Positions 52,687-62,296 are shown, counted from the first letter of the stretch. The stretch: DNA of 64,000 nucleotides from a virus (IMGVR_UViG_3300031813_000016:2338-66337), one strand, 5' to 3'. Made by a program: numbers and translations. The notes: a model not told the origin generated them from the sequence alone.

Positions 52687-53115
52687 TTATTCTCCTTCTT
52701 TAATATTTGTAGATCCATAACCATTAATTCCTCTTTCTGAGTCTGATAATTCTTCAACTACTTCAAATTCTATTTTACGATATGGTATAATAATCATTTG
52801 ACCAATTCTATCACCTACATTATATTTTTCTCCAAAATCTAAATATTTGAAGCGAAAGGTTATTGGACCACGATATCCGCTATCAACCACCCCAACAGAG
52901 TTTGCTAAAATTAATCCCTTATCAGATATAGAACTTCTTGGAAATAATAACCCAACATACCCATACGGGACTTCTATAGCTATACCGGTTTCATATTCAA
53001 TATAATTTAATTTTTCATTAACTTTGATACAAGTAAAATCTAAACCAGCATCGCCAGGTTTTGCATATTTTGGCGTAATTGCATCTTGGTGTAATTTCTT
53101 TATTTTAACCTTCAT
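52687..53115 (-). CDS. dut: Trimeric dUTPase
   Basis: AGLDF, TGIA, LFPRSS, GVVDSGYRG, RIGQMII, RG.NGYGST. Confidence 0.95.
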   Translation of the reverse strand: MKVKIKKLHQDAITPKYAKPGDAGLDFTCIKVNEKLNYIEYETGIAIEVPYGYVGLLFPRSSISDKGLILANSVGVVDSGYRGPITFRFKYLDFGEKYNVGDRIGQMIIIPYRKIEFEVVEELSDSERGINGYGSTNIKEGE

Positions 53116-53256
53116 TTTTAATCTCCATTTTATTCATATAAATTCTAATTCGTTCTATAAGTTCTTCTCTAGTTCCTGTTGTTTCTAACCTACAGTTTCA
53201 CATATATTTTTAAATTCTTCTGTTGGTATAAAATCAAGAGCTTGTATAGTTTTCAT
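53105..53256 (-). pseudogene. Frameshifted SAP-domain-like ORF
   Basis: MKTIQALDFIPTEEFKNICETVG then TAG; one added base gives LETTGTREELIERIRIY (SAP consensus GL...G.K.ELI.RL). Confidence 0.5.
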
Positions 53257-53258
53257 TT

Positions 53259-53642
53259 TTATTCATCCTTATAATTTAACTTTTCTAAATTAATATTATC
53301 TTGAACTTCTCTATTTTCTTTCTCTCTAAGAATTAATTCTAATTCAGCTAATGCATTCCAAGCCTCATGTGCTTTATGTAAAAATCCACTATCTCTATCA
53401 TTTTCTTCAATTGCACCATACAGAATATGTCTGTTCTTCGCATCATTATATCTTTCAATACCATTTGGAACTTCTAACCATCCATGAGCTGTATATTTAT
53501 TAGCTCCAAAAGTACATATCTTTGAAACTTCTAAAAGAGCTCTAGCAAAATCATTGAATAAAAGTCCAACTCTTAACTTACCTGCATCTACTTTAGCTCC
53601 TGTTTCATGCTGATCTTTTCCATGTGGGTCTTTTTCTTCCAT
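53259..53642 (-). CDS. dATP/dGTP diphosphohydrolase (DUF5664 family)
   Basis: GAKVDAGKLRVGLL..ALLEVSKI.TFGANKY...W...RY..A..RH...DSG.LH.AH.AWN.LA.LEL. Confidence 0.85.
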   Translation of the reverse strand: MEEKDPHGKDQHETGAKVDAGKLRVGLLFNDFARALLEVSKICTFGANKYTAHGWLEVPNGIERYNDAKNRHILYGAIEENDRDSGFLHKAHEAWNALAELELILREKENREVQDNINLEKLNYKDE

Positions 53643-53646
53643 CTAT

Positions 53647-53949
53647 TTATTCTCCTCTTTTCTTTTGAAATAACATTACTATAACTTCTCTTGTTAATTC
53701 CATTGGATATTCTTTAGTCAATTCTTTAAATTCATTTTGAATATTTATTATTTCAATTAATTTTTTTAATTCCTTAAAATTAGTACATGGTTTATTATCA
53801 TTATTAACATATAATGATTCTGTTATTAAATCTATTCCATATTTAGTAACTAAATCTTGTAATTTACATTTTATATCATCTCTAGCCATAACTTCATTAA
53901 ATTTAATCATATCTTTATGAGCTAGTTGTTTCCTTTCATATTCAGTCAT
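53647..53949 (-). CDS. Hypothetical protein
   Basis: 100 aa. Confidence 0.65.
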   Translation of the reverse strand: MTEYERKQLAHKDMIKFNEVMARDDIKCKLQDLVTKYGIDLITESLYVNNDNKPCTNFKELKKLIEIINIQNEFKELTKEYPMELTREVIVMLFQKKRGE

Positions 53950-54217
53950 TTATATTTTTCTCCTTAAATATTTCTTCTAATACTTCTTGTTTCATTTTAC
54001 TAGGATAACTACTTGTCATATCAAACCAATCATTATGTATTTTATATAAAATTTCACCTTCATGTTCATCATATTCATAACAACCATAATAATTTGATAA
54101 TACTAAATATATTTTTTCTTCACTACAACTTGATAATAGTAATAATATCTCATAACAATTTCTAATTTCTTTTTTACCTCTTTCAATGTTATCTTTGACC
54201 CATTGTTCTTCTTCCAT
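53942..54217 (-). CDS. Hypothetical protein
   Basis: 91 aa. Confidence 0.6.
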   Translation of the reverse strand: MEEEQWVKDNIERGKKEIRNCYEILLLLSSCSEEKIYLVLSNYYGCYEYDEHEGEILYKIHNDWFDMTSSYPSKMKQEVLEEIFKEKNIND

Positions 54218-54246
54218 AATTTAAATAACCCTTAAACATTCTGTCC

Positions 54247-55731
54247 TTAAACTAATTTAATTTCTAAAAATTTTAAAACTAAATTAGAGTGCATTACAGA
54301 GAATAATTGCTCTTTACTTGGATGACTAGAACTTAAATTATTCAAGTACATAGCCTTAACCAATTGTTTTGCTTCTAAAAAACTTTGTTTTCCATAATCT
54401 TTTGATTCTTCTAAGAAGAGGCAAAATTCAACTTTAAGCCAATTTAATTGTCTAAAAGAAATTCTTTTAACATTAGAAATTGCTCTACAATGTTCTAAGA
54501 TTCTCTTATTAAACTTTTCTATTAAATTAGTTTTATCTTTCAATCTAGAATAAATTGTTTTTCTTAAAATATTTAAAGCACCATTTACATCTGAATGTAT
54601 AACAACATCTTTTACTTTAAATAATCCCCTTGTGATTCTTTTTCCTTCATAAATTTTATGTTTATTTATTTCTTCTAATATAATTGATGAACACTTACTA
54701 GTATACCACTCAGATATTTCATAAACGGATATTGAATTTTTATTCCCTTGAAATTTTAAATAATTTTTAAAATAACTAAATGGAATCATATTCCAAAGTT
54801 TTCTAATTCCTTTACTTAATTGATTTTTTGTCATTATTGATTTTACATTTCCAATACTCAATCTATTTATTCCTAAATTTTTTAAATATTGTATAATTCT
54901 TATGGCTATTAATTTTAGTTGAGATTTAAAATTATTTTTAACTTTTTGTCTATAAACTTTATATTTTTCTTCACTTTTATATTTACTAGATTTTTTAAAC
55001 AATTTTAAATTTTCATAAACTAATTCCTTCAAATCAAATAATATTGGTTTAAAGTTTATATCATCTATTAAACAAATATTATCTAACCCAATATCAATAG
55101 AAGCAAATTTTAAATCTTCGTTTTTTATAACTTTTTTATATTTAATTTCTTTTTGTTTCATAAAGTAAATAAACCATTTACCTTGTAAATATCTAAATTC
55201 TAAATAAAATTTATCACTAGTTTCTCTTATATATTTTAACATTTTTTGATTTAATTGGAATTCTATTCCTCTTGGAAATTTTCTATCTTTAATTTTTTGA
55301 ATATTACAAATATATAATTTTCCATCATCTTTGATTATAAATCCCTGGCTATTAGGATCTACAACCGTAAAACCTCTGAATTCAATTTCGTGGTGATATT
55401 GTTTATGCGGACTTAAAATTATACTTTTAGCATTTTGAATAGCTTGTGGTAATATATTCATAGAAATTCTAGTTGGTAATTTATCATAATGATATCTAAA
55501 AATTCTTGTTGGAATTTCACATGGTATCTTTTTTCCAATAAAATTACTAATATTATCAAAGTATTTTTCTAATGTTTTCTTATTTCCACCATAATTTCTA
55601 TATCCAAAATAAACTAACCATTTTGTTAATTGATTAAAAGCTCTTTGATAATGGTGTGAGTAGTACGTAAGATATGCATCTTGATAAGAATTAGTCCTTA
55701 ATTTTTGAATAGAAACAGAATTAACTTTCAT
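54247..55731 (-). mobile_element. tnpB: TnpB-family RNA-guided endonuclease (IS200/IS605/IS607 OrfB) with rearranged RuvC-II; no transposase nearby
   Basis: RuvC-I SIDIG, LSIGN at the canonical Glu site, EWYTSKC, RITRGLF, HSDVNGALNILRK. ATG 55731 overlaps the RHH stop. Confidence 0.85.
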
Positions 55732-55855
55732 ATTTTTTAATAAGATCCTTAATTGCCTCTTCAATTAAACATTTAATTTTCATACCTTTTTTATTAGCTA
55801 TTTCTTTTAATTTTTCATGAAGATTTTCATCTAAATAACTTGTAAAAAGTTTCAT
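55721..55855 (-). CDS. Ribbon-helix-helix protein (44 aa), translationally coupled to tnpB
   Basis: MKLFTSYLDENLHEKLKEIANKKGMKIKCLIEEAIKDLIKKYES; AAGGAG RBS; not in the ORF track. Confidence 0.8.
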   Translation of the reverse strand: MKLFTSYLDENLHEKLKEIANKKGMKIKCLIEEAIKDLIKKYES

Positions 55856-55914
55856 AATTCTCCTTTAAATATAAAATATTTTATTTATATATTTGTTCTA
55901 TATTAAAGTACATA

Positions 55915-57288
55915 TTAGATCTTTAATGTACGATGTTGATCCATCATCTCAGTAAATTCATCTTTAGCTAAGAATTTTTCTACTAAATATTTACAAAAAT
56001 CTTCGTCTAAATTAGTTAGCATATCTAATGATCTTAATACACTATTTGACTTGCTTGTTTGTTTTCTTGTGATCTTTCCACTATTTAAACATTGGGTCAC
56101 AAATTGAATCTTGTTATGTAATAATTCGTTATCACTAGATTCATAAATATCATAAATTTCTTGAGCTTTAACTTTTAGTAATTTTTCAACTTGATTATAA
56201 ATATCTAAAATATATAACAAAGAATAAACTCTTATTTCAGAAAAAAATGTTCCTGTTTTTTTATCATATATTTCATTCATTTCTAATTCTCTGAAGTTAT
56301 GATTTTTAGCCATAATATTTATTTTTTCTTTATAAATATCAATAACTTTTTTCTCGCTATGATGTCTTAAATTTAAAAAATCACTTCTTAAGTTTATTTT
56401 TTTTATTTTTTCGTCATCCAACACATGTAACATTCTTCCAACCATTAATCCTTTAAACATGCCGGAAGAATCAAATGTTATATTCAATTCAATACCATGT
56501 ACTTTTAATACATGTAATTTGAATAACTCATAAAATAAAATATCTCTAAATGTTGCTCCACCTAATATATGGAAATGTAAAAAATTTCTACCAAACTTTT
56601 TAGCTTGATTTATTAATGGAATTAATGGTAAACAATATATAATACAAGGTATAGCAGAGTCGGATGACATATTAGCAACAATACCACCAGTTGCATGATA
56701 TTGAAATTGATTAAACATATCATCTTCATTTAAAATCTTTGTATAAATTTCCCATAATTTAGGAGTTCTAAAATGATGAATGTATATTATTTTATCTCTC
56801 ACATTTTTTGGTAAATTCATTGCTTCAGTATATGATGATTTATTCAAATTAAATACATCATCAAAGTCTCTAAATACTGTACAATTTGGACCTGGCGGTA
56901 AATCTAAAATAAAAGCTCTGTCATAACAATCATTATGGTCAACTAAAAAATGATAATAAATATCTTTCAATATTTCCATTTCTCTTCTATTTAATAAACC
57001 AATAGAAACTTGGAATGCACCACTATCAACATAAAATAAACTTTTATTGAAGAAATCAAATCTTCTACATTTGTTAAATACTTCTGCTTCTTTTTCACTA
57101 TAATTGGTATATGATTTTCGACCAGGAAAGTTTTGTCCAAAAGAATGAAGAAATTTATTAGAACTATTTAAGAAAAAATTATCAATAATAGGTCTATCAA
57201 AATGATTCTTATTTTCATCACTTCTAATAAATTTATCAAGTATACTTCCTAAGGTCTCAAATCCTGCACATATATAACTAGACGTCAT
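55915..57288 (-). CDS. tRNA-guanine transglycosylase-fold protein, DpdA-like
   Basis: FYVDSGAFQ, FILDLP, HATGG, HFHILG, TFDSS in TGT motif order. Confidence 0.65.
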   Translation of the reverse strand: MTSSYICAGFETLGSILDKFIRSDENKNHFDRPIIDNFFLNSSNKFLHSFGQNFPGRKSYTNYSEKEAEVFNKCRRFDFFNKSLFYVDSGAFQVSIGLLNRREMEILKDIYYHFLVDHNDCYDRAFILDLPPGPNCTVFRDFDDVFNLNKSSYTEAMNLPKNVRDKIIYIHHFRTPKLWEIYTKILNEDDMFNQFQYHATGGIVANMSSDSAIPCIIYCLPLIPLINQAKKFGRNFLHFHILGGATFRDILFYELFKLHVLKVHGIELNITFDSSGMFKGLMVGRMLHVLDDEKIKKINLRSDFLNLRHHSEKKVIDIYKEKINIMAKNHNFRELEMNEIYDKKTGTFFSEIRVYSLLYILDIYNQVEKLLKVKAQEIYDIYESSDNELLHNKIQFVTQCLNSGKITRKQTSKSNSVLRSLDMLTNLDEDFCKYLVEKFLAKDEFTEMMDQHRTLKI

Positions 57289-57564: not shown

Positions 57565-57840
57565 TTATTCTGGAGCTAAAACACCATAAACTTCTCCAGC
57601 ATGCATACATCTATATTCTTCATTATCAAGAAGAATAACTTGCCCTGCTCTACTATGAAATGTAATTGTATCTCCTTCTTTAATACACTCAATTTCAGGC
57701 GCTACACTAGAGACTATTCCATACCCTTGAGGAAGAGAAGTAATTGAGGTTGGCAAAACAATTCCACCTTTAGTTGTATTCTCAATTTCTTTCAACACTT
57801 TAACAATAACCATATCAAATACAGCATTAATCTTTCTCAT
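57565..57840 (-). CDS. groES: Co-chaperonin GroES
   Basis: INAVFDMVIVK...TTKGGIVLP...G.V.SV...IKEGD.I.F...G..I..D.EEY......V.GV; start moved to 57840. Confidence 0.9.
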   Translation of the reverse strand: MRKINAVFDMVIVKVLKEIENTTKGGIVLPTSITSLPQGYGIVSSVAPEIECIKEGDTITFHSRAGQVILLDNEEYRCMHAGEVYGVLAPE

Positions 57841-58099
57841 TGTGCTTTCTCTCCCTTGTAGACTGTAATTTCTCTTTTTTAATTTCTTCAAGTTTACATC
57901 TTTGAATTGCTTCTTTTCTTTTATTCCTTCTTCTAACACTTGGTTTAATATAAAATTCTCTAGCTTTCAATTCTTTCAAAATTCCACTATTATTTACTTT
58001 CTTTCTAAACCTTCTTATTAGTGATTCACCTGATTCGCCTTCTTTTGGGTATACTTCAATTTCAATAGAATCTCTTTGCTGTTGCCTTTTAAACGCCAT
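57827..58099 (-). CDS. rpsU: 30S ribosomal protein bS21
   Basis: EGESGESLIRRFRKKVNNSGILKELKAREFYIKPSVRRR.K; start moved to 58099 (GGAGGA RBS). Confidence 0.9.
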   Translation of the reverse strand: MAFKRQQQRDSIEIEVYPKEGESGESLIRRFRKKVNNSGILKELKAREFYIKPSVRRRNKRKEAIQRCKLEEIKKEKLQSTRERKHNEKD

Positions 58100-58112
58100 C
58101 ACTTCCTCCAAT

Positions 58113-58772
58113 TCAAACAAAGTTATAAATTATGTGGTCTCTACTTGAAAAATTGAATTTATATTTTTCTGCCATATCAAATACAAATCCTGAATTTTCT
58201 AATAGTTTTTCTCTTGTTGTTCCTTCTGGCATTAAAAATATCTTTTCATTCATAAAATTAAGATTAGATAAAAATTCTAAAAAATCTATAATTTTTGAAT
58301 CATTTTCACAAACTAATTTAATATAAACATTTCCTTTATCAAAAACTTTAGTAATCAAATTTTTATAAAATACAACATCTTCATCTGTAAATAATTTTGG
58401 AGATAGTATATATTTAACATATACTTCTTTCTTTACTTTGCTTATTAATTCTTCTAATCCAGTTCCATTAGTTTCGACATTTGCAAAATTAAAATCTAGT
58501 TTGTTTAATAATGTTGCAGTTTGATTTAAATTTAAAGACCATGTTGGTTCTCCACCTGTTATCATCAATGCCACTTTTTGTTCATCAATAATTAATTGTA
58601 AATCATGTAAAGAATAATCACTTTCCATTGCATTTCTCATACGGACTTGTGTGTCGCACCAGGAACAATTTCTATCACATCTTTTAAATCTTAACATTAA
58701 CATTCTTCGTCCAGAATCTGGGCCTTCTCCTTGCCAGGTTATACATGACTCTATTAACTTAACACTATTCAT
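58113..58772 (-). CDS. queE: 7-carboxy-7-deazaguanine synthase QueE-like radical SAM protein
   Basis: TWQGEG...G...LRF..CDRNCSWCDT, MITGGEP, NVETNG, SPK, LMPEG. Confidence 0.85.
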   Translation of the reverse strand: MNSVKLIESCITWQGEGPDSGRRMLMLRFKRCDRNCSWCDTQVRMRNAMESDYSLHDLQLIIDEQKVALMITGGEPTWSLNLNQTATLLNKLDFNFANVETNGTGLEELISKVKKEVYVKYILSPKLFTDEDVVFYKNLITKVFDKGNVYIKLVCENDSKIIDFLEFLSNLNFMNEKIFLMPEGTTREKLLENSGFVFDMAEKYKFNFSSRDHIIYNFV

Positions 58773-59080: not shown

Positions 59081-62000
59081 CTAAAAAGTTAATACTTGGG
59101 TATCTTTACCAATAATAGGTTCTAATAGTAATTCATACCGATCTTTCCACGCAAACTCTAACATTGCCTTAACATTAACACTATAATATTTCGGTAAACT
59201 CAATTCTTCATCTGGTAGAGAAATCACCTCCAATTTTGTCCCTTTAGAAAGGAATTCATTATTATACTTTTCTAAAACTTCCTTTGGTGCTATGTCTTGT
59301 TTAATACCATTAATCTTGAAAAGGTATCCTTTACTTCCATGAGCAAATATATTATATTCTAGATTATTCCAATTTATCATTGAATGAACATTTTGTGATA
59401 TTACTTTGTAATCATCTACATCTTTAGTAAATGATGCTGGTTTTGCAACTGACTTATCTCCATTTTGAATTCTAATAATAAATTCTTTTTCTCTATTCTC
59501 TATAAATTGTCTAACTCTAGATGGTGAAAAATTCTCACTCTTTAAAATTAATTCAATTAATTCAGTTAAACATTCTTTAGTATATCTTGAAAAGTCAGAT
59601 CTCTTTACATCTAATCCCATACTTTTTATTGTATCCATTTGTACACCTTCGTTTGATATAATATGAAGGGCATAATGTTTCTTAGATACAAATAAACCAC
59701 GTTGTATAATTAATTCATTCTTTAAAAATAATTTATTATTTTCAGGTTTAACATTATGAATTAATGTTAGTTTCTCAATAATATCTTTATTTAAGAAATT
59801 TTGTAATAATACACAATATTCATTAACTTGTTTAACTTTATCTTCTTGACTCATTTTTTTATTAATAATTTTTCCATATGTAACAAACAAACTGTCAGTA
59901 TCGCCTGTTATAATATATTCTGTATTTCTGGATAAATTCCCATACATTTCTTGTTTAGTTATTAATTCAGGTAAAATATGGTTTTTAGTTTTCCATGAAT
60001 CAACCATATTATTTGCTGCCATAATTGAAAATTTAAGAGCTTCCTGCCCAGTTAATGTAATTGATTCAGCTAAGTCAACATTGAAAAACCTAAATGCTTT
60101 ATTACCCTGAACTCCATATATCGCATTTGCGAGTACTTTATATACCAATTGACGTACGTTATATAGTGATACACTTTCATCGTCTTTGACCTTCTCAGCC
60201 TCGAACATCTTATTCTTATATACCTTCCTAGACTTTAAAAGGTACTCTTCAATTTCATTATAAAAAGATTTTTTGTAATCATGTTGATAATAAAAACAAC
60301 CATTAATTGTCATAATTAAATCATCTTTTTCTTGTAATTTTTTAACATCTTGTTTAGTAAGTCTTTTTTCAATAGCTGTAAAATCCGGATCTATAATAAT
60401 ATCAACTTCATCTGGTAAATTATTAAAGTCATATAAATAATCATAACCGTGTGTTTTATCTTTAAATTTAAAAACAAAACTATCAGGACCAATATTCATA
60501 GTCATCATTATACTTGGGTATAGTGATGTAAAGTCAAAGTCAACAATCCATTCATGTAACCCAGTAATTGTTTCTTTAACAAAAGCACCAGCAAATTTTT
60601 GTTCTACTCCATGTATATCTGCATTTCTTGAAACTAAACCTTTTCTCTTTAGATATGAAACAATAATTGAATCAACTTTTCCCATTTCATTTGCTGCTGA
60701 ATTAAATGTTCCATTTGTAATTTCTCTCATTTCATTCATGAGAAAAATATGTTTTAATTTCTTATCCAAATCAACAAGAAGTGATACGTCTCTCACGTTA
60801 TATCGTATTGACTGATTTACATTTTCTTTAAACAATTTTCCAAAATTAGATCCACTATCTAATTTATCTTGTTTTAATTCAAATAACCCTACAGTCCCTA
60901 ATCTATTATTCTCTGGTTTTTTCTGAGAATAATTTTTATATAGATCTAACATATCTAAACATATAAATCCAGATATATCACAAAATCTTCTATCTGCATC
61001 TACATATATTTCTCCATATTTAGAAAATGAAGCTGGGATTATTCCTAACTTAGCAGCTCTATTTATAATGTATGGGAAGTCAAATCCAATGCTATTCCAG
61101 CCCGACAGTATGTCTGGATCTAATTTTAATAAATCATCTCTAAATCTTGTTATTAATTCTTTTTCTGATTTACATAATATTGCACTTTCTGTAACATTTT
61201 CAGCATTTGGGTCTTTTAACAAAATTTTATTATCAATCATATATGTAACATATTTACCATTTAACCAATATGTTATCATTGCTAATATATCTTTAACATC
61301 AACTGCATTTGAATATGATTTAGATTCACAAAATGTTTCAATATCTAGATGCATAATATTTAATGGTACGTTAGCCTCACCCTTATTAAGAAAATAATAA
61401 TCATGAGCATGTTTAACTGGTAATTTTATATCTCCATCATATGTTATTGAGGGATCTAATATTGCTTTTTCTTTGTATTTAACCATTACTTGCTTAATTT
61501 CATCAAATTTTAAAACTTTTTTATTTGGAATTCCTTCTTTTGGTTGATAGCAATAATAATCATCATTCTCTTCATGATAAATTTTCTTATTGTTTTTATC
61601 TCTAAAAATATATAAAACTTTATTAGCTTTATTCAACATTTGAATATCAACTAATTTATATTCATCTGTATAAAATTTATCGGGTATTTTATAATAATGT
61701 ATTCCTTCATTGCCTAAAATACTTTGATTAATTTTTTCTTCTCCTTTAATAGTCGACCCTAAAATAAACTCAGCTGCTTTTTTAATATCTTCTTCAAATT
61801 TTTCTTCTAATGTTTTTTGCTTATTAATAAACGATGGATTCAAAGTTAATAGAACATCGTAATTTTCCCATTTAAAAAAGTTACCTCTAATATTAACTAT
61901 ATTTGAATTTTTAGGAAGGACTTGAAATGTATTAGCTGGAATATCTCCCATTAATACAATTAGTTTAGGTTTACATGTTTTTATAAAATTAAAACAATTT

Positions 62001-62296
62001 TCTTTACAATTCTCAATTACATTTAATTCAGGTATTTCAGTTTGGCATAATATATTATTAGTCAATAAATATTTCATATCATTTATTTTATATTTTTCAA
62101 AATACTTTCTGAATAAAATATTAGATTTTCCAGATAGTGGTTTTTCTTTTTTAATTTCGTCTTTTGACGGAAACTCTGATATAAAGATAATTTCAACATC
62201 TTCTAAATCTTTACAATTAGTTTCTAATATACAGGAGGGTTCATTCAGGAGGGAACAAGACATACAATCTGCAAATGATTTTTTAATACTGAACAT
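59081..62296 (-). CDS. Family B DNA polymerase with N-terminal UDG family-4-like domain
   Basis: Exonuclease LDIET, GWNS..FD.PY, RYN..DV; polymerase DFDFTSLYPS, KVLANAIYG, TGDTDS, KKHY. N-terminus C..C.L, SEFPS, TN...C, C..FI...KPKLIVLMG, RG, TLNPS. Confidence 0.9.
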   Translation of the reverse strand: MFSIKKSFADCMSCSLLNEPSCILETNCKDLEDVEIIFISEFPSKDEIKKEKPLSGKSNILFRKYFEKYKINDMKYLLTNNILCQTEIPELNVIENCKENCFNFIKTCKPKLIVLMGDIPANTFQVLPKNSNIVNIRGNFFKWENYDVLLTLNPSFINKQKTLEEKFEEDIKKAAEFILGSTIKGEEKINQSILGNEGIHYYKIPDKFYTDEYKLVDIQMLNKANKVLYIFRDKNNKKIYHEENDDYYCYQPKEGIPNKKVLKFDEIKQVMVKYKEKAILDPSITYDGDIKLPVKHAHDYYFLNKGEANVPLNIMHLDIETFCESKSYSNAVDVKDILAMITYWLNGKYVTYMIDNKILLKDPNAENVTESAILCKSEKELITRFRDDLLKLDPDILSGWNSIGFDFPYIINRAAKLGIIPASFSKYGEIYVDADRRFCDISGFICLDMLDLYKNYSQKKPENNRLGTVGLFELKQDKLDSGSNFGKLFKENVNQSIRYNVRDVSLLVDLDKKLKHIFLMNEMREITNGTFNSAANEMGKVDSIIVSYLKRKGLVSRNADIHGVEQKFAGAFVKETITGLHEWIVDFDFTSLYPSIMMTMNIGPDSFVFKFKDKTHGYDYLYDFNNLPDEVDIIIDPDFTAIEKRLTKQDVKKLQEKDDLIMTINGCFYYQHDYKKSFYNEIEEYLLKSRKVYKNKMFEAEKVKDDESVSLYNVRQLVYKVLANAIYGVQGNKAFRFFNVDLAESITLTGQEALKFSIMAANNMVDSWKTKNHILPELITKQEMYGNLSRNTEYIITGDTDSLFVTYGKIINKKMSQEDKVKQVNEYCVLLQNFLNKDIIEKLTLIHNVKPENNKLFLKNELIIQRGLFVSKKHYALHIISNEGVQMDTIKSMGLDVKRSDFSRYTKECLTELIELILKSENFSPSRVRQFIENREKEFIIRIQNGDKSVAKPASFTKDVDDYKVISQNVHSMINWNNLEYNIFAHGSKGYLFKINGIKQDIAPKEVLEKYNNEFLSKGTKLEVISLPDEELSLPKYYSVNVKAMLEFAWKDRYELLLEPIIGKDTQVLTF

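Follow-up and report, generated by a model that had tools for sequence, protein, structure and literature searches.

A transposase-less TnpB cassette with an Arc-like RHH gene in a large freshwater phage

Pairing of an Arc gene with tnpB has been described, including elements that carry arc and tnpB only (bioRxiv 10.1101/2023.11.20.567912; 10.64898/2026.09.24.754181). Repression of IS605-family elements by Arc has also been published (Moon, Zedaveinyte, Wiegand and Sternberg, bioRxiv 10.64898/2026.09.24.754181). TnpBs with a rearranged RuvC site are known as well. In clade RIIr-5 (Altae-Tran et al. 2023, PMC10691335) a Glu is changed to Gly and a second Glu compensates for it, and the relocated Glu corresponds to the 'Ealt' that Yoon et al. 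2023 (PMC10711439) describe in Fanzors and pro-Fanzors. Virus-borne rearranged TnpBs are found in the same literature (PMC10691335; both bioRxiv preprints).

The locus compared with these systems here is a cassette of 1.7 kb from a large lake-water phage, which comprises an RHH gene, tnpB and an apparent guide-RNA terminus. It lies in a 64-kb stretch of DNA (hereafter the window, 28% GC) that was analysed out of a 66,337-bp IMG/VR virus record with a CheckV completeness of ~21%. The cassette resembles the Arc-containing IS605/IS607 elements and IStrons of Zedaveinyte et al. in the RHH gene beside tnpB, the short leader before arc and the putative scaffold at the tnpB 3' end. However, arc is co-directional with tnpB here and overlaps its start, whereas in many published elements arc and tnpA run divergently from tnpB. 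The host differs too, being a phage; none of six relatives within the TnpB subfamily has an RHH gene upstream of tnpB, and the likeness is one at the level of the RHH family.

Comparisons with IS607 elements encoding TnpA_S, TnpB and omega-RNA, such as the C. botulinum CboIStron and the related loci L013, L018, L019 and L020, showed a conserved right end and scaffold terminus, GTTTAAG..CAG. The four related loci share the full-length TnpB subfamily with the window, and in both the upstream gene overlaps the tnpB start. In contrast to these elements, the window shows no serine transposase, no recognisable left end and no group I intron, and the cassette is present as a single copy in the available DNA.

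T4-like phages carry free-standing homing endonucleases of the Seg and Mob types. Like these, the cassette is a selfish nuclease gene located between conserved replication/nucleotide-metabolism genes and absent from sister phages. However, the nuclease here is predicted to be RNA-guided, with a target set by the flank that templates the guide, and its homing is a proposal drawn from related systems. With moderate confidence, we read the cassette as an IS607-family TnpB/omega-RNA element that lacks a transposase and has an Arc-like RHH gene in its place, and that is retained because alleles without the cassette are cut under RNA guidance and recombination then copies the cassette into them.

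The TnpB protein and its relatives

The tnpB frame can be read from two start codons (Table 1). The ATG fits the N-termini of relatives better and is also the start of the database copy of the protein (P0001, 494 aa). The protein passes the cut-off of the Pfam family PF07282, Cas12f1-like_TNB (29.9 bits against 26.3), and matches the NCBIfam model guided_TnpB at 5e-14, yet below the family cut-off. A phmmer search of the PDB with the window TnpB alone gave no match and a profile was needed; the profile of 79 homologues matched ISDra2 TnpB and Cas12f at 1e-17 to 1e-22. The AF2 model of the protein has a pLDDT of 82.9 and a pTM of 0.78. A Foldseek search with the model retrieved AsCas12f (7e-13), the mimivirus Fanzor2 (9b0l), the ISFba1 TnpB (8iaz) and the ISDra2 TnpB (8h1j), with matches that span the model's whole length. 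By profile, fold and Asp-Glu-Asp triad, the window protein belongs to the TnpB/Cas12 superfamily, and RNA-guided cleavage is predicted for it.

Alignments of 15 and 79 homologues showed that D224, E352 and D392 are invariant and that G305 is nearly so. In profile alignments to solved Cas12f structures, G305 aligns with the RuvC-II Glu (QMEDL in AsCas12f, QIENL in SpCas12f1), and E352 (SEWYTSKC) aligns with the Pro of the usual DPxYTS. An earlier note, made from the DNA alone, had recognised Gly at the canonical RuvC-II position, Glu before YTSK and both Asp residues intact, and the 79-homologue alignment bears this out. The protein resembles the RIIr-5/'Ealt' TnpBs in having Gly for the RuvC-II Glu and a Glu directly before YTS, a likeness by motifs rather than by tree. 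However, its RuvC-I reads D224-I-G where pro-Fanzors and Fanzors have DPG, a single Cys (C358) is left of the C4 zinc finger between E352 and D392, and an extension of ~100 residues is present. Thus the alternative Glu at the Fanzor-type 'Ealt' position stands from the earlier description of a Fanzor-related TnpB, whereas a Fanzor relationship in the strict sense does not.

In the extension that follows RuvC-III, conservation at the protein level reaches to about residue 458 in P0142, P0143 and P0148. The AF2 model shows helices in this region with a pLDDT of 86-92 and is confident to about residue 478. Judged from these alignments, the ~100 residues after RuvC-III are a trait of the subfamily. 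The frame of 505 codons stays open in DNA of 22% GC and all catalytic residues are kept, which argues for purifying selection on the protein.

A phmmer search over 1.84 billion representatives retrieved 1,270 TnpBs. Among these, beyond its own copy P0001, the window protein could be aligned over its full length only with P0142, P0143 and P0148 (28-35% identity), and the other matches span only residues about 215-405. The nearest relatives are 33-35% identical to the window TnpB. A metagenome scan yielded three more members of the subfamily (L018, L019 and L020), and a further word-index protein search with the subfamily alignment added none. The subfamily is rare and very divergent. In four of the six related loci (L013, which encodes P0143, L018, L019 and L020), a TnpA_S gene with HTH_17/MerR-type and Resolvase domains overlaps the tnpB start, indicating that the TnpB subfamily belongs to the IS607 family.

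Two further observations were made on the related loci. L013, L018 and L019 are IS607-type elements from marine or vent metagenomes in which each flank starts with A after ...GAGCAG, and their right ends provide a usable set for defining the TAM and the guide of the TnpB subfamily. In addition, the 10-mer GGTTTACAAT is common to L012 (5992-6001) and L013 (713-722) despite their strongly diverged TnpBs. It is located ~50 nt upstream of tnpA in L013 and abuts the tnpB start codon in L012, so that L012 looks as if tnpA had been deleted and the left end fused to tnpB. In both loci GG precedes TTTACAAT, which recalls the GG core of IS607.

Phage context, RHH gene and leader

The phage is of a large, AT-rich, freshwater type. 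The gene order PolB(UDG), radical SAM, S21, Cpn10, 457-aa gene, variable genes and DnaB is common to related phage contigs. The cassette occupies a variable gap with the conserved 457-aa phage gene on one side and replication/nucleotide-metabolism genes on the other, and 29 nt separate tnpB from the next gene (start codon at 54215-54217). The RHH gene and tnpB are absent from the five related-phage loci examined (L005-L010; flanking protein 57-74% identical). In the closest phage (L005; flanking protein 74% identical), a 442-aa protein begins 20 nt after the 457-aa gene, and only its last ~120 residues match the 127-aa dATP/dGTP-diphosphohydrolase-like gene of the window. A clean empty site was not found, as the nearest phage has other genes in the gap, and a metagenome search aimed at an empty site through relatives of the downstream 91-aa gene gave no match. 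Peptide patterns of the 457-aa gene likewise gave no match in IMG/VR, and hundreds of its relatives are in the protein database.

Table 1. Features of the cassette and its surroundings, with positions counted from the first letter of the window
Feature	Position	Strand	Remarks
RHH gene (Arc/CopG-like), 44 aa	55721..55855	-	ORF; Pfam RHH_3 2e-8; PHROG Arc-like repressor 2.5e-10
Ribosome-binding site AGGAG	55860-55864		upstream of the RHH gene
Perfect 14-bp palindrome ATAAAATATTTTAT, candidate RHH operator	55871..55884	.	between the GAACAAA motif and the ribosome-binding site
GAACAAA promoter-like motif	55892..55898	-	36 nt upstream of the RHH start codon; intergenic enrichment
tnpB	54247..55764	-	505 aa with the TTG start at 55764; the ATG start at 55731 (494 aa) is more likely
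D224 codon	55093-55095	-	catalytic
G305 codon	54850-54852	-	canonical RuvC-II Glu site
E352 codon	54709-54711	-	alternative Glu, catalytic
D392 codon	54589-54591	-	catalytic
C-terminal extension after RuvC-III, residues about 403-505	54247..54558	-	protein-coding and overlapping the guide-RNA scaffold
omega-RNA-like scaffold, terminal domain	54241..54346	-	AAAGAG box, closing stem CUGU/ACAG, 13-bp AU hairpin, 3' end GUUUAAGGACAG
Scaffold 3' end / right end, 12-mer GTTTAAGGACAG	54241-54252	-	identical to L012; contains the tnpB stop codon
Putative guide template AATGTTTAAGGGTTATTTAA	54221..54240	-	flank just 3' of the right end; covers the 29-nt spacer/leader of the next gene; 20-nt length assumed

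The surroundings of the cassette have several features of their own. The 127-aa dATP/dGTP-diphosphohydrolase-N-like protein (53259-53642, minus strand) is a stand-alone version of the C-terminal 120 residues (70% identical) of the 442-aa protein of L005 (7398-8726); the N-terminal ~318 residues of the latter are replaced in the window by the RHH gene, tnpB and two small ORFs. The 457-aa protein (55915-57288, minus strand) matches nothing in Pfam, PHROG or NCBIfam and no PDB sequence. More than 550 homologues of 50-74% identity exist in a large phage group, always located after PolB, radical SAM, S21 and Cpn10. Ribosomal protein S21 (Pfam 1e-17; 57827-58120, minus strand) and a Cpn10/GroES homologue (57565-57939, minus strand) are syntenic in every related contig examined. 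The family B DNA polymerase (59081-62296, minus strand) has an N-terminal UDG-superfamily domain (Pfam UDG 3e-11), and this fusion is kept in L005 and L008.

The RHH gene occupies the slot of tnpA_S in the TnpB relatives, and it may belong to the element or to the phage. Its overlap with the tnpB start, reported in the earlier note, was found as described and amounts to 11 nt when tnpB is read from its ATG, as is typical of coupled genes. It is the single RHH gene in the 66-kb record. A tblastn search with the RHH protein gave no match in phages, and in plasmids it retrieved only generic RHH or CopG-like genes with E values of 0.007 or weaker. Neither a Y1 nor a serine transposase is present in the 66-kb record, which represents ~21% of the phage genome, and PF00239, the serine recombinase family of TnpA_S, has no match in it. 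Within this scope the cassette indeed comes without a transposase, as the earlier note had stated. The record contains one tnpB and no second copy, and searches of IMG/VR with peptide patterns and with the exact right-end 18-mer found no near-identical copy of the cassette. A group I intron or IStron was also considered and rejected, as an Rfam scan of 53000-57000 at E values up to 1 returned no family.

The leader between the RHH gene and the 457-aa gene carries a GAACAAA motif. The window contains 27 copies of GAACAAA compared with 18.8 expected, a weak enrichment overall. Seven of the 27 are located in the intergenic 7.5% of the window. All seven share the orientation of the gene that follows (P about 0.003), in most cases at a distance of 15-60 nt from its start, and a promoter-like role of the motif is plausible. 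The earlier note had assigned the motif to the phage. The motif is present as described, whereas its ownership was not confirmed: the left ends of L013 and L018 have GAACACA ahead of tnpA, so that GAACAAA here may belong to the phage but could also be the element's own. The perfect palindrome further downstream is suggestive of an RHH operator by its position within the 59-nt leader; 14-bp palindromes in the window number 11 against a chance level of 11.5. By likeness to the published Arc repressors of IS605-family elements, autoregulation of the cassette by the RHH protein is plausible.

In base composition, tnpB and the RHH gene, with GC3 values of 0.119 and 0.089, match the phage genes (0.09-0.15), and the values of the relatives are much higher (0.22-0.36). 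Thus, the cassette is not a recent arrival from a GC-richer source. Such residence in an AT-rich lineage would also suit a domesticated phage nuclease, as suggested in the earlier note, which has lost its mobility and, under a phage promoter, has become a weapon in the competition with other phages, or a regulator, with the RHH protein setting the timing. The GAACAAA motif, common to six other phage leaders, the single copy in the record, the tight packing against the next gene and a left end that is unrecognisable while the RNA 3' end is kept exactly are all consistent with domestication. However, the absence of the cassette from the L005-L010 loci argues against a conserved phage function, and the GAACACA in the left ends of IS607 relatives weakens the case for a phage promoter. 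The single copy refers to ~21% of the genome. In addition, the subfamily is an ordinary IS607-family one with a serine TnpA and copies in different flanks, the right end of the transposon is kept, and what stands at the guide position is just the local flank, as would be so for every resident element. Domestication as originally stated was therefore not upheld, and no observation separates it from plain homing; we regard it as unlikely.

The right end and the predicted guide-RNA scaffold

Analysis of the relatives showed that the last ~230 nt up to their right end fold far better than shuffled sequences (z = -6.8 and -5.95). The RNAalifold consensus of L012, L013, L018, L019 and L020 has 44 pairs, in which 95.7% of the cells are paired, compared with 30-38% in controls with slid partners. 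Compensatory changes are seen in 12 of the pairs. Three versions of the 7-bp terminal stem exist, each of them fully complementary: CUGUCCU/AGGACAG, CUGCUCU/AGAGCAG and CGUACCU/AGGUACG. The scaffold of the relatives overlaps the tnpB 3' end and terminates in GTTTAAG..CAG/ACG. L013, L018 and L019 are near-identical elements whose flanks differ, and they diverge from one another immediately past ...GAGCAG. This places the right end, and with it the boundary between scaffold and guide, directly after ...CAG.

In the window, the terminal 12-mer is identical to that of L012 (12/12) and matches that of L013 in 10 of 12 positions at the homologous place. In L012 the same 12-mer is located downstream of the stop codon and is non-coding, so that its conservation cannot be put down to coding constraint. 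When a covariance model was built with the window left out, its best match within 53000-57000 was at the terminal domain listed in Table 1 (17.9 bits, E about 8e-5, filters off). The match covers the terminal domain alone, and with default filters the model gave no match in the whole window. Four of the seven pairs of the terminal stem are kept (CUGU/ACAG). The 3' region of the window folds no better than shuffles (z = -1.46 and -0.45), and the upstream helices of the relatives, including H1 and H5, are not recognisable in it. Taken together, the scaffold end appears to be conserved in the window and the remainder diverged or decayed; the RNA itself is predicted. The conserved 3' end and terminal hairpin lie where the earlier note had placed an overlap between the ~100 residues after RuvC-III and the guide-RNA scaffold.

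The ends of the element were settled in part. The right end is set by the divergence of L013, L018 and L019, whereas neither a left end nor an empty site was found: in the 59-nt leader nothing resembling the relatives' left end could be recognised, local alignment scores being at the level of shuffles. Repeats around the cassette were set aside. Examples are stretches at the left edge that match the C-terminal region in 13/14 and 13/16 positions, and GTTTAAGG, which recurs 15 nt into the flank; such repeats are as frequent as expected in AT-rich DNA.

The putative guide has no second site in the window. Its 18-mer has three matches in IMG/VR, which are located in unrelated contexts and were taken as chance. 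The guide target search proposed in the earlier note, covering IMG/VR and the window, thus gave no target elsewhere beyond chance matches.

The loss of structure raises the alternative of a decaying relic, that is, a stranded element with a degenerating omega-RNA whose protein is no longer an RNA-guided nuclease. Consistent with decay, the terminal stem is down to 4 bp, H1 and H5 were not found, folding is no better than that of shuffles, and the TnpB is just 33-35% identical to its nearest relatives. However, the 505-codon frame is still open in very AT-rich DNA, the protein retains all three catalytic residues together with the subfamily motifs and has a confident structure model, and the 12-nt RNA end is exact. 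A relic is accordingly quite improbable, and the transposase-less IS607-family element remains the preferred reading.

Proposed mechanism and persistence of the cassette

In the preferred reading, the RHH gene and tnpB would be co-transcribed from the 59-nt leader and, by the 11-nt overlap observed between them, translationally coupled. An RHH dimer would bind the leader and repress the cassette, in analogy to Arc in IS605-family elements, the palindrome being a guess at the operator. The 3' part of the tnpB mRNA would give rise to an omega-RNA scaffold ending ...GUUUAAGGACAG, as suggested by the conservation of the scaffold end and hairpin, and the next ~16-20 nt of the flank would serve as the guide. 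From published TnpB biology we infer that TnpB cuts TAM-bearing DNA next to the flank sequence by means of D224, the relocated E352 and D392. The target would be an allele without the cassette, carried by the genome of a sister phage or a co-infecting one, into which recombinational repair would then copy the cassette. This logic of homing and retention is borrowed from published work on IS605/IS607 elements (bioRxiv 10.1101/2023.11.20.567912). As TnpA is missing, the element cannot transpose alone.

A toxin-antitoxin-like pair, in which the RHH protein binds and blocks TnpB directly as proposed for an archaeal RHH/MazE-TnpB clade, would agree with the small, translationally coupled RHH gene directly upstream and has been published as a hypothesis for that other TnpB clade (PMC10691335), but it is very improbable here: the RHH/MazE clade (RIIIr-4) is defined by a RuvC-III Asp-to-His change and has a long 3' untranslated region, whereas D392 is kept and only 29 nt follow tnpB in the window, which weakens the proposal, and in IS605-family elements Arc has been shown to work at promoters (bioRxiv 10.64898/2026.09.24.754181).

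The reading as a transposase-less IS607-family element can be carried further. In this phage lineage, a repressor gene may have taken the place of the transposase gene in an IS607-type element, which would now persist solely as an RNA-guided homing cassette under a phage-type promoter, with the whole scaffold inside the reading frame and the guide templated by the leader of the next gene. It would spread between co-infecting phages like a free-standing homing endonuclease. This more specific scenario is put forward tentatively and is possible rather than probable.

All parts of the cassette are of already described kinds, and it is a well-documented new example rather than a new system. Specific to this locus are the rarity and divergence of the subfamily, the position of the RHH gene exactly in the tnpA_S slot, the full compositional match to the phage, and a predicted scaffold wholly inside the reading frame with the stop codon within its last 12 nt.

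The cassette leaves current concepts unchanged. It provides a clear natural example of a phage TnpB element without a transposase and with an Arc-like gene in the tnpA_S slot. It also defines a rare, very divergent TnpB subfamily in which the Glu is relocated, the zinc finger is absent, the C-terminal domain is long and a fully coding-embedded scaffold ends in GTTTAAG..CAG. As a compact editor scaffold, the subfamily could be of interest. If homing from phage to phage is true, the cassette would support the view that transposase-less TnpB cassettes are RNA-guided counterparts of phage homing endonucleases.
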